Source of the DNA: a virus
Lineage: Duplodnaviria > Caudoviricetes
Length of the DNA stretch: 64,000 bases
Strand: one strand, 5' to 3'
IMG/VR virus record: IMGVR_UViG_3300049563_000052
Coordinates: 33,020-97,019 of that record
Shown here piece after piece: positions 48,538 to 55,121 of the stretch. The translations under genes were made by a program, and so were the position numbers. Position 1 is the first letter of the stretch. Every line of letters begins with the position of its first letter. The notes beneath the pieces are model-generated. The model worked only from the letters and a program-made list of their open reading frames with translations, had not been told where the DNA came from and searched no databases.

Positions 48538-48774
48538 TCAGCCGGGGCGCACGTCAGGTAACGGGCTGCCGTAGGCCACCCAACCCTCGATCTGCCACAC
48601 GTCCTCGATCGGCGTGGTCGGCGGCTCCCGCCACGGCGACGCGTCGTGCGGCCGGTACACCTCGCACTCCCGGTTCCCGCAGTGCCCGCAGTCGGTGCCG
48701 GGCCGGTAGTGCACGTGCGTCACGGCGTCGCAGCCGCACCGGCAGGGCGGGGCGTCCGGATCGCACGGGCGCAT
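48538..48774 (-). CDS. Cys/His-rich small protein
   Basis: CRCGC...H.HYRPGTDCGHCG. Confidence 0.65.
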   Translation of the reverse strand: MRPCDPDAPPCRCGCDAVTHVHYRPGTDCGHCGNRECEVYRPHDASPWREPPTTPIEDVWQIEGWVAYGSPLPDVRPG

Positions 48775-49693: not shown

Positions 49694-50100
49694 GATCCCG
49701 CCTCCGCATCGGCGTCGGCGGCCTGCCGGATCTCGTCGGCGAGCGCGACCCGGCGCTGCACCCGGGCGGTGGCCGGCCGCAGCCGGTCGATCAGCTCGTC
49801 GTTGGCGTGGCTGATCTGGTAGCCGGAGCGGTGCAGGGTCAGCAGGCACTCGTCGAGCAGCAGATCGACGCGCACGAACGCGGAGGCCAGGTCTGGGTCA
49901 TCCATGGGGGACATCGTGCAGGGCGGCGGCGGGCCGTCTTCGGGTTCGCGAGTGAGGTCACCGGCCGGATCGGTGGCCAGCGCCTCCAGCCCGGCCGGTG
50001 TGACTATCCAACCCGCCCGGGTGGGCCAGCCCGCTACGGCCAGTTGCAGCACGGGCAGCGGGGCAGGGGAACGGTCGTTCGTCGTGGTGGTGTCGTCCAT
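49690..50100 (-). CDS. Hypothetical protein (probably leaderless)
   Basis: TACGGT -10 (50108-50113) lies 7 nt before ATG 50100. Confidence 0.65.
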   Translation of the reverse strand: MDDTTTTNDRSPAPLPVLQLAVAGWPTRAGWIVTPAGLEALATDPAGDLTREPEDGPPPPCTMSPMDDPDLASAFVRVDLLLDECLLTLHRSGYQISHANDELIDRLRPATARVQRRVALADEIRQAADADAEAGS

Positions 50101-50107
50101 GGATGTC

Positions 50108-50149
50108 ACCGTATCGCCGCGCGCCGGGCGCGCATGGCGGGGGTACGGT
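50108..50149. promoter_or_regulatory. Divergent promoters (both TACGGT -10) flanking an operator palindrome
   Basis: GCGCGCC-G-GGCGCGCA at 50119-50134; -10 boxes at 50108-50113 (minus) and 50144-50149 (plus). Confidence 0.65.
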
Positions 50150-50270
50150 ACTCGTGCACGAATGCGAACGCAGAGGGTGGGACGGGCCCCGGGGGCCCGT
50201 CCCGACCCGGCCCCACCACGAAGTGAAGACCACCCACAACGGCGAAACACCTTCGGAAAGGAGTCCCTGA

Positions 50271-50423
50271 ATGGGCGACGCCACGGTACCGCACGCACGC
50301 ACGCCTGCACGTGCGTGTCCCTCTGTCGGAGCTGTGCGCGTGGTGTGTCTCCCCCGGTTTGTCGGTGTGTCGCGGGATCGTTCGCAGCGCGGATCGCAAC
50401 CCACCACGAGGGAGGACCCATGA
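50271..50423 (+). CDS. 50-aa leader ORF coupled to the exonuclease gene (not in the ORF track)
   Basis: GAAAGGAG RBS; stop overlaps the ATGA start at 50420; atypical codon usage. Confidence 0.55.
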   Translation: MGDATVPHARTPARACPSVGAVRVVCLPRFVGVSRDRSQRGSQPTTREDP

Positions 50424-51604
50424 TCACAACGATGGACATCGGCCCGGACTACTGGGCCGCGCCGACCGGCTGGGACTACCCGGACGGCTGGCCACGCGAG
50501 CACCCCGGCGTGTCCCCCGACGACGCCCTGGAGGTGTTGCCTCCCGGGCTCGACGACGCCGACCCCGAGCTGTGGCGGGCCTGGCGGCTGACCGGCATCG
50601 GCTCGTCGGACATCTCCGCGCTGCTCGGGCTGCACCGCCGCAAGGCCGCCATGGAAACCTGGGAGATCAAGACCGGCCGGGTGTCGGACGACCTGACCGC
50701 CTGGGACGACGACGACGCGTACACGACGTGGCAGGGCGCCGAATACGGGGTTGCGTTCGAGCCGGTGGTGCGGGACCTGTACGCGGCCAAGCACGGGCTG
50801 ACCATCGTCAAGCCGGGCACGTTCCGGTCGGTGCGGTGGCCGTGGCTGGTGGTGAACCCGGACGGGCTGATCCAGCGCCCGGCCGGGCGCTGGCCCGCCT
50901 CCGACGGCGAGGGCCCGATCGAGGGCTACGAAGGCAAGACCTGCTCGATGTGGCTGGCCGAGCAGTGGGCGGGCGGGCAGATGCCCGACCATGCCGAGCT
51001 CCAATGCCAAACCATGATGGCGGTGCTCGGCCTGGACGGCATGCACGTGCGCTGCTGCATCGGCGGGCAGTGGTCCGCCGACCGGTACGTGGCCCGCGAT
51101 GACGGGCTGATCGAAGACATCGTCGAGCTGACCCGCGAGTTCTGGTATGACCACGTGCTCACCGACACGCCGCCGCCGCCGGACGGCGGGCTGGCCTGTG
51201 AGGAATTCCTGACCCGGCGGCACCTGCACGCCGCGCACGGCCCGACCGCGGTGGCCGACCCGGACGCCGCCGCTTTCATCCTGTCCGCCTGGGCGCAGGA
51301 GCGTGCGGCCAAGACCTACGTCGACGGCGGCCGGGAGGGCAAGAACGTCGCCCGCGACCAGCTCGGCGACTTCACCGAACTGATCGACGACCAGGGCCGC
51401 ACCATCGCGACCTGGCGGCAGAACGGCCCGCTGCGGACCGCCGAGCTGCTCGCCGAGCACCCGGACGAGACCGCCCCGTTCCTGCGCAAGGTCGAGGTGC
51501 TCGACGCCGACGCGTTCGCCGAGGCGCACCCCGACCTGTACACCGCGTACCGCGCCCGGCGGCTACTGATCAAGACCCTGAAGACCACGAAGGAGAACCA
51601 CTGA
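50420..51604 (+). CDS. YqaJ/RecE-like (lambda exonuclease family) recombination exonuclease
   Basis: RLTGIGSSDISALLG, NPDG, YEGKT, LQCQTMM. Confidence 0.92.
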   Translation: MITTMDIGPDYWAAPTGWDYPDGWPREHPGVSPDDALEVLPPGLDDADPELWRAWRLTGIGSSDISALLGLHRRKAAMETWEIKTGRVSDDLTAWDDDDAYTTWQGAEYGVAFEPVVRDLYAAKHGLTIVKPGTFRSVRWPWLVVNPDGLIQRPAGRWPASDGEGPIEGYEGKTCSMWLAEQWAGGQMPDHAELQCQTMMAVLGLDGMHVRCCIGGQWSADRYVARDDGLIEDIVELTREFWYDHVLTDTPPPPDGGLACEEFLTRRHLHAAHGPTAVADPDAAAFILSAWAQERAAKTYVDGGREGKNVARDQLGDFTELIDDQGRTIATWRQNGPLRTAELLAEHPDETAPFLRKVEVLDADAFAEAHPDLYTAYRARRLLIKTLKTTKENH

Positions 51605-53046
51605 TGGCTAGGGACCTGGCCGATCGGGTGCACAGCGCCCGTCGCGGCCGCGGAGACGATCCGGCGGCGGGCAACGGACGCGAGGTCGCCCGCCAGCCCG
51701 ACGACAAGGCGTTGATCGAGGCCGTGCGGAAGATGCAGACCGAGTTCGCCAAGGCGATGGGCCCGATCCGCGGGGAGGCCGCCGAGCAGCTGGTCCGCGA
51801 CGCCACCACCGAGATCCGCCGCAACCCCAAGCTGGCGCTGTGCAACCGGGCGTCGGTGCTCGGCGGGCTCATGACGATGGCGCAGCTCGGGCTGCGGATC
51901 GGGGTGCTCGGGCACGGCTGGCTGATCCCGATGTGGAACGACAAGCGGCGCGAGCAGATGGCCACGCTGATCATCGGGTACAAGGGCTACACCAAGCTGG
52001 CCTACAACGCCGCCGCGCTGCGCGACATCCGCTCCCGCACGATCTACGCCGCCGATGAGTACGCCATCGAATACGGCACCGAAGAGCGGCTGCTGCACCG
52101 CCCGGCGATGACCGCGGACCGGGGCGAGCCGATCGGCTACTACTGCGTGGTCAACCTGAACGCGCGGCAGCCCGGCCAGCCCGGCGGGCAGATCTTCCAC
52201 TTCCGCAGCCAGCCGGAGATGGAGCTGCACCGGGACCGCTACGCCATGTCCCGCGAGTTCGACTGGTCGTCCGGCAAGCCCAAGCCGAAGTACCACGACG
52301 ACGGGCGGCCGATCATCACCGGGCCGTGGCGGGACAACTTCGAGGAGATGGCCTGGAAGACCGAGTGGCTGACGATCGCGCGGTTCGTGCCGATGTCGGC
52401 GGATCTGGAGCTGGCCACGTTCGCCGACGGCACCGCCCGGCTCGACGTGTCCCCGAACAACCGGGACGCCGCGGCTACCGGTGACCGGCTGGGGGACACG
52501 GTGCTGGACGGGGACATCGTCGAGTCCGAGGCCGCCGCCGCGGAGCCGGAGCCGGAGCGGGAGACGATCGACGTGCGCAAGTCGGAGCCGCCCGCCGACG
52601 AGCGCCCGCCCGCCGCCGACCCGGAGCCCGACGAGCAGCCGCCGATGCCGCCCGCCGACGAGCCCGCCGCGGGCAACCGGCAGGCGATGATCCGGGCCCT
52701 GTTCGCGACGATGAAGCCGTGCGGGATCTCCGATGTCGAGGCCGTGATCGTGCTGGTGTGCGCGCTGAACGGGTGGGACTTCGACGACGCGGACCACGCG
52801 CTCCCGGGGTCGCTCGACGACATCTCCGCCGAGCAGCTGACGCACGCCATGCGGCTGCTCAACCAGTGGCGCGCCGACGGCGACGAGGCGCAGATGTGCA
52901 GCCTGCTGCTGGAGCACCGGCCGGACCCGGACCACCCGGTGTGGGACCGGGTCACCGCGGCCCGCCGCGAGCACGAGAAGACCAAGGCCCCGAGCGCACG
53001 CCGGAGCCGCAAGAGCACCACCGAGAAGGAGGGCACCGATGGCTGA
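51604..53046 (+). CDS. recT: RecT-like ssDNA annealing protein
   Basis: NPKLALC, AQLGL, LIIGYKGY, GPWRDNFEEMAWKT. Confidence 0.93.
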   Translation: MARDLADRVHSARRGRGDDPAAGNGREVARQPDDKALIEAVRKMQTEFAKAMGPIRGEAAEQLVRDATTEIRRNPKLALCNRASVLGGLMTMAQLGLRIGVLGHGWLIPMWNDKRREQMATLIIGYKGYTKLAYNAAALRDIRSRTIYAADEYAIEYGTEERLLHRPAMTADRGEPIGYYCVVNLNARQPGQPGGQIFHFRSQPEMELHRDRYAMSREFDWSSGKPKPKYHDDGRPIITGPWRDNFEEMAWKTEWLTIARFVPMSADLELATFADGTARLDVSPNNRDAAATGDRLGDTVLDGDIVESEAAAAEPEPERETIDVRKSEPPADERPPAADPEPDEQPPMPPADEPAAGNRQAMIRALFATMKPCGISDVEAVIVLVCALNGWDFDDADHALPGSLDDISAEQLTHAMRLLNQWRADGDEAQMCSLLLEHRPDPDHPVWDRVTAARREHEKTKAPSARRSRKSTTEKEGTDG

Positions 53047-53485
53047 CATCGAGGAGATCCGCGAGCGGGACTGGGAGCGGCTGACCCCGGAGGGCAAGGC
53101 GCTGGCTGTGATGCTGGTCGGGCTGCGCAGCGGCAAGACGCTGCGGGAGGCCGCGGAGAAGCTGGGCGTCGTCGTCGATCACGTGGTCGACATGAGCTAC
53201 ACCGACGACAACGGCAACGTGAAGGGCCCGAAGGGCACCGTGACGCTGACCCTCGAAGTCTGCCCGGACCCCGACGGCGGGTCCGGGACGGTGCTGGTGA
53301 ACGAGAAGGTGGCGCACCGCTACCCGGAGGACCGCGGCCACGTGCTGTACACGGGCAAGAACGGCACCCTGCACACCCGGCAGGAGACGGCCGGGATGCT
53401 GTTCGCGGTCGAGGACGGCGAGATCCGCACCCTCGGCGATGGCGACGGCGACGATCCGCAACGGCGGGCCGCGCAGGCAGATTGA
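53039..53485 (+). CDS. Conserved phage hypothetical protein
   Basis: KGTVTLTLEV...LYTGKNGTLHTRQ motif. Confidence 0.75.
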   Translation: MADIEEIRERDWERLTPEGKALAVMLVGLRSGKTLREAAEKLGVVVDHVVDMSYTDDNGNVKGPKGTVTLTLEVCPDPDGGSGTVLVNEKVAHRYPEDRGHVLYTGKNGTLHTRQETAGMLFAVEDGEIRTLGDGDGDDPQRRAAQAD

Positions 53486-53497
53486 GGAGGCCGTCCC

Positions 53498-53602
53498 CCG
53501 ATGGGCTGTACCGCTCACGGCATCGGCGCGCCCGACCGCGTAGTGGAGGTTCCCAACACCACACGTTCGGGTCCAGGATGCCTACTCGTAACGGGTGGGC
53601 AT
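53498..53602 (+). ncRNA. Putative C4/CI-like structured RNA (three hairpins)
   Basis: Stems at about 53498-53526, 53531-53571 and 53578-53602; loop GGTTCCCAAC is complementary to 53729-53738. Confidence 0.4.
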
Positions 53603-53702
53603 ACCTCACACACGCACCACAAGCATCATCAGCCTCACGTGTACCAGCCGGGGAGTAGCCGAGGGGGACTCCACGGGCGTACTGGCTGAGTTATTGCTTG
53701 GT

Positions 53703-53773
53703 AAACCATAAACGACGGCCACCCCTGGGTTGGGAGCCGGGGTGGCCGTCGGAGAGGACGATCTCCATGTCCT
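53703..53773 (-). ncRNA. Putative ~70-nt cis-antisense RNA to the rep leader
   Basis: Extended -10 TGCTAACCT at 53780-53788 (minus); 12-bp hairpin 53714-53750 followed by GTTTATGGTTT on the minus strand. Confidence 0.55.
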
Positions 53774-53832
53774 GGCGACAGGTTAGCAGCAATGCACGTG
53801 CATCCGTCCACGACGCCACGCGGGTCCGGTGA
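53767..53832 (+). CDS. 21-aa leader peptide coupled to rep (not in the ORF track)
   Basis: GGAGAGG RBS at 53751-53757; MSWRQVSSNARASVHDATRVR*; TGATG overlap with the rep start. Confidence 0.6.
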   Translation: MSWRQVSSNARASVHDATRVR

Positions 53833-55121
53833 TGGACGGTGCGCAGGCGCAGATTACGGCGCGCATCTGGGAAGACCCGGAATGGCGGGCGCTGTCAGTA
53901 ACAGCGCAATGGCTATACCAGTCCGGGCTGTCACAACACGAAATCACGAAATGTGGCCTGCTGCCGCTGCGGGAATCGCGGTGGGCGGGGCTCGCCGCGT
54001 ATCTTGATATTGACGAGATACAGTCCGCGCGGAAACTCCTGGTCGATACCCGGTTCTGGGTGGTGGATGAGGAATCCGAGGAGGTGCTGTACCGCTCGTT
54101 CATGCGGACGCGCGAGGTGTGGCGCAACAACAACATGCTCAAGGCGGCGTGTCTGGCGTGCCACAGCGCCCGCGGTCCGGGGGTCCGGGCGGCGCTGCTG
54201 CGGGAGCTGCACCGCCTCCCGCAAGATCACATACAGCGGTTGCGTCCGGCCCGCAACGGGCAGCGGCGGCCGTGGCTGGTGTACGTCGAGACGATGGCCA
54301 TGCTCCGCGGTGAAGGGCCGAACGGACCCTTCATCGACAACCCGGACATCGGCCAGCTGACCCTCGACGCTGAGGCGTTCGGCGGGCAGCCGGACGGCCC
54401 GCAGTCCGTTACACCTCCGCCGAACGGCCGTACCGTCGGCGCACCCCCTGGCGATGCACCCGGTGTACGCCGGACGGCGGCTGCGGCTACTCCGTTCTTA
54501 CCGCAAGGCTTGGGGCAAGGCTTGCCCCAAGCCTTGGGTGAACATAAGAACTACGTAGTTGGTGGTACAGAAGGGCAGTTAGGTAGCTGTACCAGCGGGG
54601 TTATCTCTCAAGACGCGCGAGAAGAAACGATCATCGACGTGCCCCCGCTGTTCCCTCCGGGCTGCGGCAGCGTCGACCCCGAAGACGCGCAAGTGATCGC
54701 CATGGCCCGCAGCGAGGCGCGCAAGGCCAACCGGCTGCTCAACCAGCCGTGGCTGCACGCCGGTGCCACGGCGCTCGTCGACCGGCTGACCGCCGACTGG
54801 CCGGTGCCGCCCACCGGCAAGGTCCGCGACCAGTGGCGGGTCGAGGTGAGCACGTTGCTCAAAGACGCCATCCCCGAGGACGCCATCGCGGCCGGACTGG
54901 CGGAATGCGTCGACAAGGGCTACGGGCCGCGGGCATTGGCCACATTCGTTTTCAATCTGGCCAACCGGGGCACGCCGGATTCCCGGGCTGGGCGCGCCGT
55001 AAAAGCGACGCTGTCGCATGTCGGCCCGGATGACGGGCCGGGGCTCGCTGCGTATCTGCCGGGTGCATCATTGCGCGGCACGGCAACTCCACCACGACAG
55101 CTGGGACCCGGAAATGACTGA
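53832..55121 (+). CDS. Replication initiator (RepA-like HTH)
   Basis: IWEDPEWRALS..AQWLY...LSQ...CGLLP...RWA...VDEESEEVLYRSFMR motif of actinophage Rep proteins. Confidence 0.8.
   Translation: MDGAQAQITARIWEDPEWRALSVTAQWLYQSGLSQHEITKCGLLPLRESRWAGLAAYLDIDEIQSARKLLVDTRFWVVDEESEEVLYRSFMRTREVWRNNNMLKAACLACHSARGPGVRAALLRELHRLPQDHIQRLRPARNGQRRPWLVYVETMAMLRGEGPNGPFIDNPDIGQLTLDAEAFGGQPDGPQSVTPPPNGRTVGAPPGDAPGVRRTAAAATPFLPQGLGQGLPQALGEHKNYVVGGTEGQLGSCTSGVISQDAREETIIDVPPLFPPGCGSVDPEDAQVIAMARSEARKANRLLNQPWLHAGATALVDRLTADWPVPPTGKVRDQWRVEVSTLLKDAIPEDAIAAGLAECVDKGYGPRALATFVFNLANRGTPDSRAGRAVKATLSHVGPDDGPGLAAYLPGASLRGTATPPRQLGPGND
54504..54610. other. Probable replication origin inside rep
   Basis: 33-bp perfect palindrome at 54504-54536 built from 12-bp-spaced CAAG(G/C)CTTG units, followed by an AT-rich tract. 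Confidence 0.55.

Follow-up and report, generated by a model that had tools for sequence, protein, structure and literature searches.

A conserved structured leader RNA upstream of a phage replication initiator gene, with a possible loop-loop contact at a predicted antisense target

The replication initiator gene (rep) of an uncultured high-GC soil phage, called an actinophage, is preceded by a 343-nt gap in which a series of hairpins can be folded. What do these hairpins do? The original prediction for this locus offered two readings: an immunity RNA of the C4/CI kind, or a long-range contact in the rep leader that competes with a cis-antisense RNA. We asked how well either reading fits the region and its relatives. 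The source record is a 97-kb IMG/VR virus (~70% G+C, estimated to be 91% complete), and its bases 33020-97019 make up the 64-kb stretch that was analysed (the window, to which all coordinates refer unless another record is named).

The rep locus and its relatives

On the + strand the locus carries the genes for a YqaJ-type exonuclease, RecT (51604-53046) and a YfdP-like protein (phrog_204; 53039-53485), then the 343-nt gap and the replication initiator gene (53829/53832-55121). The stop codon of the YfdP-like gene forms the 5' edge of the leader. The rep product matches phrog_8064 and phrog_3171, and its N-terminal domain is distant kin of RepA-like initiators from phages of Gordonia, Arthrobacter, Mycobacterium and Thermobifida. 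Neither a tyrosine integrase nor a serine recombinase, ParB or any other lysogeny marker was detected in the whole 97-kb record. The genome was also searched for stoperator-like operators or iterons, and the conserved blocks of the leader had no further copies in it. Within rep itself there is a perfect 16-bp inverted repeat with a 1-nt spacer (54504-54536), which is not found at that place in the related contigs L002 and L005; it is possibly an origin or a binding site specific to this phage.

The family of close Rep proteins has few members: besides the phage's own protein there are two clusters with 51-53% identity, one fragment with 60% and one protein with ~41-48%. All related contigs have the order YqaJ-RecT-YfdP-gap-rep in common, and the gap measures 343-349 nt in three lineages. 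These three (the window, L002 and L005) provide the full intergenic region; a fourth, L010, contributes the leader ORF only. L002 and L005 are ~90% identical overall, and in the flanking genes either one matches the window at 65-80% identity. Because the two relatives are so similar, the sample amounts to only two lineages that are deeply separated, plus a shallow split. Scanning JGI metagenomes with a pattern gained only two near-duplicates of known lineages, and a DNA search of cultured phages gave no match. No relative turned up in IMG/VR, whether the Rep protein or three conserved DNA patterns served as the query, or when Rep was aligned against the GTDB contigs (185,579 species genomes). 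A 17-mer from the third hairpin gave 39 matches in GTDB, all of them due to chance, with the seed alone agreeing. The next lineage out (P0005) has YfdP, a 420-nt gap and rep; the more distant Rep relatives P0006 and phages Toast and Mufasa8 are without such a gap.

Hairpins, coupled leader ORF and a predicted countertranscript

Judged from its sequence, the region 53486-53832 is best read as a long structured intercistronic leader of the rep mRNA. Folding and comparison of the three lineages indicate that it is a real and conserved structured RNA of a kind unknown to Rfam. Folding recovered the three consecutive upstream hairpins that had been predicted, and all the strings quoted in that prediction are present at their coordinates. 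The three hairpins differ in how well they are kept. Hairpin 1 (HP1, 53498-53520) is a window-specific form: the relatives fold a different small hairpin, so that the structure is not conserved and only the string ACCGYTCACGG is shared. Hairpin 2 (HP2 or 'A', 53525-53574) presents an 8-nt loop (53549-53556, GUUCCCAA) above the closing pair G53548-C53557. Its stem covaries, with two compensatory pairs between L002 and L005 (GCAG/CUGC vs GAGG/CCUC), and is rebuilt in the window. The loop is kept, as GGUUCCCAAC (53548-53557) in the window and as AGCUUCCAA(C), also written AGCUUCCAAC, in the relatives. Hairpin 3 (HP3, 53576-53605) is nearly invariant and, together with the first half of the C/A-rich tract that follows, makes up the best conserved block of the locus (85-90% nucleotide identity).

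The hairpins also indicate the strand. Two G-U pairs in the window HP2 favour the + strand. The two or three G-U pairs of HP3 form on the + strand only and would be A-C on the other, which argues for a plus-sense RNA; a minus-strand RNA for HP2 and HP3 was rejected for the same reason. There is no intrinsic terminator on the + strand, HP3 being without a U tail. The tract itself (53600-53650, + strand) is conserved, rich in C and A, poor in G and unstructured. Its C minus G skew is 0.20 in the window (<2 SD); the relatives have 0.33, and the highest value, 0.50, belongs to the leader of Thermobifida phage P1312. The tract might serve as a Rho-loading region, a reading that we hold to be weak since the skew in the window is modest. 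Beyond it lies a variable spacer (53651-53705, + strand) that is unalignable, with 12-32% identity. No + strand TAnnnT occurs in the spacer, nor between HP3 and the next hairpin downstream in any lineage, so that the upstream hairpins and this downstream one are probably co-transcribed on one read-through transcript.

The downstream hairpin, HP-B (53713-53751, + strand), has a perfect 13-bp stem and a loop at 53726-53738. The loop contains the conserved core UGGGAG, preceded by UU or CU, which creates a YUNR motif (UUGG or CUGG). Its stem shows one compensatory pair (A-U to G-C), and an A-C mismatch on the + strand of the relatives' HP-B is a G-U pair on the - strand. Directly 3' of the hairpin lie the Shine-Dalgarno sequence GGAGAGGA (53751-53758, + strand) and the leader start codon ATG (53767-53769). 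A mini-hairpin of 5 bp, in which GGACG (53756-53760) pairs with UGUCC (53768-53772), closes the 3' half of the Shine-Dalgarno sequence onto the leader AUG and the second codon. It is 100% paired and invariant in all lineages, and leader translation may depend on its opening. The leader ORF encodes 21 amino acids (53767-53832, + strand) and ends with the stop codon TGA (53830-53832), with the ATG start of rep at 53832. Across four lineages the ORF is 18-21 codons long, all its indels are multiples of three, and the TGATG overlap between its stop and the rep ATG is invariant. The locus thus has the short leader ORF translationally coupled to rep that is typical of plasmid-type control (R1, ColIb-P9, IncB, IncI2).

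A region resembling this leader is found in phage P1312 (L054, KT021004.1; 1225-1500 of that record). There the Rep ORF is annotated (as P1312_087) with a start 276 nt ahead of the homologous one, and these 276 nt look like a noncoding leader, with a hairpin right after the upstream stop codon, a tract of 60% C and 10% G, and more hairpins. The P1312 leader has the 11-mer ACGGCCACCCC in common with the 5' arm of HP-B and is without a coupled leader ORF.

The opposite strand of the leader ORF carries the only -10-like hexamers of the locus that are conserved in position. They belong to an extended -10 element, TGCTAACCT in the window (53788-53780) and TGCTACTGT, TGCTACTCT and TGCTAGCCT in the other three of the four lineages, in which TGnTAnnnT is kept and only the n positions vary. 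We predict that this element is the promoter of a countertranscript of ~75 nt (53696-53788, - strand), with a start near 53772, a hairpin and the tail UUUAUGGUUU. Such an RNA would be the complement of HP-B and of the leader's Shine-Dalgarno sequence and AUG. It folds to a stable hairpin (z = -4.1), and a U-rich tail is seen in two of the three lineages (the window and L002). From the conservation of these elements we infer that the countertranscript exists.

A 10-bp palindrome, TGCACGTGCA, occupies the place expected for the -35 element of the antisense promoter (53793-53802). L005 and L010 share it, and L002 has a deletion there. When one mismatch is allowed, TGCACGTGCA has 15 copies in the 97-kb genome where 3.1 are expected, among them copies at 48710, 50306 and 51042, and it may be the binding site of a regulator. 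The copy at 50306 falls in a leader ORF that precedes recE. The ORF called there (49904-51604) is probably too long: the YqaJ proteins of the relatives have 394 amino acids, which fits a start at the ATG at 50421. Upstream of this ATG are a GC hairpin (50179-50203), a C/A-rich tract, the motif AAAGGAG and a 50-aa leader ORF (50271-50423) that terminates in an ATGA overlap, a second cassette with the same grammar as that at rep.

Complementarity of the two loops and its alternatives

The complementarity on which the prediction centred is present. In the window the HP2 loop (53548-53557) can pair with the HP-B loop (53729-53738) over 10 bp, one of them G-U. The duplex (-19.3 kcal/mol) is the longest that can be formed between the upstream and downstream segments. 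Dinucleotide shuffling of both segments (125-136 nt) gave a duplex of equal length 14% of the time. When the HP2 loop alone was shuffled, loops that did as well against the HP-B loop numbered 0/5000 for the window, 134/5000 for L002 and 141/5000 for L005. All three lineages with a full gap keep the complementarity, over 10, 7 and 9 bp, and have a 7-bp core in common. In each of the three, HP-B is the top-ranked downstream target of the HP2 loop, by a margin of <1 kcal/mol in L002 and L005. Ensemble predictions leave the loops mostly unpaired, with the exception of the HP-B loop of L005, which is predicted to be mostly paired.

The pattern of substitutions is less telling. Nine kissing pairs were counted, of which four are invariant, three show one-sided changes and two are terminal and broken in some lineages; none shows a double change. 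The kissing helix is paired in 86.7% of the alignment cells, and the three one-sided changes stay paired, going from G-C to G-U. The 10-bp duplex has six substitutions, transitions without exception, and half of them break pairing, which is the chance level if no other kind of change takes place. Binding is no weaker in non-cognate loop pairs than in cognate ones, giving no sign of co-evolution. A lack of compensatory covariation in homologues had been named as grounds for abandoning the contact, and formally this is the case, with no double change seen; however, two deep lineages are too few for a refutation, and covariation in such a sample can neither prove nor refute a loop-loop contact.

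A less direct argument can be made from the loops themselves. A cis-antisense pair puts no constraint on the sequence of its own loop; that the loop of HP-B is conserved nonetheless suggests a third partner. The only other loop of the leader that complements it is that of HP2, which is also conserved, and we regard this as the strongest indirect argument for a contact. In the window, 10 of 12 bases are identical between the HP2 loop and the loop of the predicted countertranscript. The two loops probably reside on one transcript, and from their complementarity we infer that they may pair and that pairing would have an effect.

The second complementary element fared worse. The original prediction paired the linker CCAGGAT (53573-53579, + strand), which overlaps the base of HP3, with GTCCTGG at the leader start codon (53769-53775). 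This match is real in the window; the linker is not conserved, and in the relatives the pairing is down to 4 bp (CAAGGAT vs GTCCGAG). Nor is a pairing of 7 bp above chance, as at least 6 bp were found in every shuffle and at least 7 bp in 99%. Both partners sit in conserved local helices, GGAU in the base of HP3 and GUCC in the mini-hairpin over the Shine-Dalgarno sequence and AUG. The second complementarity is most likely due to chance.

These features can be combined into a model. Rep would be made by translational coupling to the short leader ORF, whose ribosome site lies just 3' of HP-B. The ~75-nt countertranscript, transcribed from the extended -10 element, would attack the HP-B loop and cover the leader Shine-Dalgarno sequence and AUG, much like CopA of plasmid R1. 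The HP2 loop would mimic the loop of the countertranscript and form an intramolecular kissing contact of 7-10 bp with the HP-B loop. Its likeliest role would be to occupy or remodel the antisense target loop and so to set the sensitivity of leader and rep translation to the countertranscript. The logic would be that of ColIb-P9 and IncB, where a pseudoknot and an antisense RNA are rivals for one loop, and both protection and repression are possible outcomes. By analogy with ColIb-P9, we tentatively favour the view that an upstream loop kisses the antisense target loop of the same mRNA, at odds that we put somewhat short of even.

It is quite possible, if a little harder to credit, that the loop-loop complementarity is incidental and that HP1-HP3 and the C-rich tract are independent cis elements of an intercistronic RNA. 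The hairpins would then be 3' stabilizers or a processing site of the recET-yfdP message, with HP3 as a 5' protective hairpin for the rep message, and the G-poor tract would load Rho or act as a standby or enhancer region for ribosomes. Recognition by a protein or the ribosome would explain why the loops are kept, the GGGAG of HP-B being Shine-Dalgarno-like and the CUUCC of HP2 anti-Shine-Dalgarno-like. Such a reading accounts for the best conserved block of the locus, HP3 with the tract, which plays no part in the kissing model. It also has parallels in the hairpin and C/A-rich tract that precede the recE leader ORF (50179-50255) and in the hairpin and 60% C, 10% G tract that stand before rep in P1312, and it agrees with a kissing helix that shows no compensatory change and with the ease with which shuffled segments yield a 10-bp match. 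On the other hand, matches of loop against loop are rare by shuffling, and the match is kept in every lineage. The modest skew of the tract in the window and the missing U tail, by which HP3 is not an intrinsic terminator, speak against some of the proposed roles, and no factor is known that reads these loops.

That HP1-HP3 are cut from an early transcript as a stable, trans-acting RNA of ~100 nt appears improbable to us. Like C4, such an RNA would bind to the rep leader, of its own genome or of a superinfecting one, and stop the translation of leader and rep, for immunity or replication control. The family includes C4 of P1/P7 and the immunity RNAs CI of P4 and CA of N15; the role of C4 is summarised in PMC8198154. 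The locus does share their general plan: within one operon a structured RNA lies upstream of its complementary target, which is followed by a short ORF coupled to a downstream gene. Hairpins this compact might keep a processed RNA stable, RNases could plausibly cut in the single-stranded linker and the C/A tract, and in every lineage the HP2 loop can pair with that of HP-B. However, the Infernal/Rfam search for C4 that had been proposed as a check gave no match. With permissive filters, neither C4 nor any other family was found in 53486-53835 at E <= 10, and the L002 and L005 loci had no match at E <= 1; ARAGORN found no tRNA-like element. In addition, the locus has one conserved complementary element where the immunity RNAs have two, and the gene regulated here codes for a replication initiator instead of an antirepressor. 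The conserved target (53729-53738) lies in a hairpin loop about 15-20 nt upstream of the Shine-Dalgarno sequence, with 13 nt between the end of the target and that sequence, so that the ribosome site and AUG remain uncovered. A fully complementary countertranscript is apparently already encoded for the task, and no integrase or partition gene was found that would mark the phage as temperate. The proposal of a C4/CI-like immunity RNA is therefore not borne out; by these comparisons the leader element falls outside the C4 family and is C4-like only as an upstream RNA complementary to a downstream leader.

We consider it very doubtful that the nucleotide conservation reflects a small His-rich protein. 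An open frame of 62 codons (53501-53689; ..GGHTSHTHHKHHQPH..) has an ATG that is preceded, at a distance of 10 nt, by GGAGG. All three lineages keep this frame (..GCLLVTGGH.SHTH..) open, indels between conserved blocks add up to a net 12 nt, and synonymous codon differences amount to 5/15, 5/19 and 2/9, compared with 0-2 in the other two frames. Its starts, ribosome sites and ends are, however, not conserved: the product would have 62 aa or 71 aa, and in L002 the frame runs into the leader ORF (~114 aa counted from the first GTG). The compensatory changes in the stems would be radical in a protein (R to G, C to L), the changes in the loops fall at codon positions 1 and 2, gene callers call the ORF in no relative, and long open frames are common at 70% G+C. 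Least credible of all is that the features act on DNA, the loops being an inverted repeat with arms ~180 bp apart for Rep or a repressor, or single-strand hairpins for initiation at an origin: rep genes often contain or adjoin an origin and the two 10-mers form a 9/10 inverted repeat in the window, yet the sites fall exactly in the loops of covarying hairpins, those of the relatives match as DNA at only 6-8 of 10 positions with differences in the 7-bp core that are the ones G-U tolerates on the + strand, GTTGGGAG occurs once in the 64-kb window, and no iterons were found.

Of the two original readings, then, the C4/CI part falls away and the long-range contact that competes with a cis-antisense RNA stays viable. 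We find the contact the best supported since both loops are conserved on covarying stems, their complementarity is present in all lineages and the predicted countertranscript would target the same loop.

Relation to known RNA switches

By analogy, the region fits a plasmid-style module better than a C4/CI element and would be closer to plasmid copy-number switches than to RNA immunity of the P1/P4 type. In plasmids ColIb-P9 (IncI-alpha), IncB and IncL/M, rep control combines a leader peptide, an Inc antisense RNA and a pseudoknot that competes with it for one hairpin loop, according to PMC8053102 and PMC10724649. The phage locus resembles them in its short leader ORF coupled to rep, the predicted antisense gene opposite the leader, the UUGG-type U-turn motif in the target loop and a possible second intramolecular partner for that loop. 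The geometry is different. In the plasmids the partner is downstream, at the rep ribosome site, and activates, whereas here it is a hairpin loop 180 nt upstream; and the contact would be a kissing one, where that of ColIb-P9 and IncB joins a loop to a single strand. The two are also unrelated in sequence or by Rfam, and the host here is a phage of high-GC Gram-positive bacteria. A pseudoknot partner of the ColIb-P9 type near the rep start was looked for and rejected, there being no conserved complement near 53820-53835 and only a 6-bp match in L005. The pseudoknot-antisense control of rep in ColIb-P9 and IncB was reportedly established by Asano and Mizobuchi in 1998 and by Praszkier and Pittard.

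Plasmid R1 (IncFII), with its CopA/CopT pair, tap leader peptide and repA, offers a second comparison, as described in PMC8053102. In R1, as predicted here, the antisense target hairpin lies just upstream of the leader ribosome site, translation of Rep needs translation of the leader, and the countertranscript has ~70-90 nt. R1 differs in having no upstream intramolecular partner for the CopT loop, and the system described here is predicted from sequence alone. Control of repA by the tap leader peptide is said to go back to work by Blomberg et al. in 1992. In the fold-back inhibition of hok/sok, too, a long-range mRNA contact governs the access of antisense RNA and ribosomes to a leader region. 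That contact is a pairing of the 5' and 3' ends, released by 3' processing, and not a loop-loop one, and it serves a toxin system, not replication.

Replication control by antisense RNA, leader peptides and pseudoknots is textbook knowledge for enterobacterial plasmids and, to our knowledge, hardly documented for phages. We found no actinophage report of such control in a literature search aimed at plasmid and P1 systems. If the contact were not real, a conserved leader RNA unknown to Rfam (HP2, HP3 and the C/A tract) would remain as the finding. A more daring version of the favoured kissing model, which we think rather unlikely, is that the rep mRNA carries its own 'anti-antisense': the HP2 loop would copy the loop of the countertranscript and capture the target in cis, so that long early transcripts containing HP2 escape the antisense RNA and processed or shorter rep messages stay sensitive. 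If true, this would be a kinetic switch for replication, of a type that we do not know to have been described for any phage. If the contact itself is real, the same competition logic would have evolved independently and in a different geometry, with a kissing pair 180 nt apart, and high-GC phages would possess a compact RNA switch for the timing of replication that can be tested by cloning.
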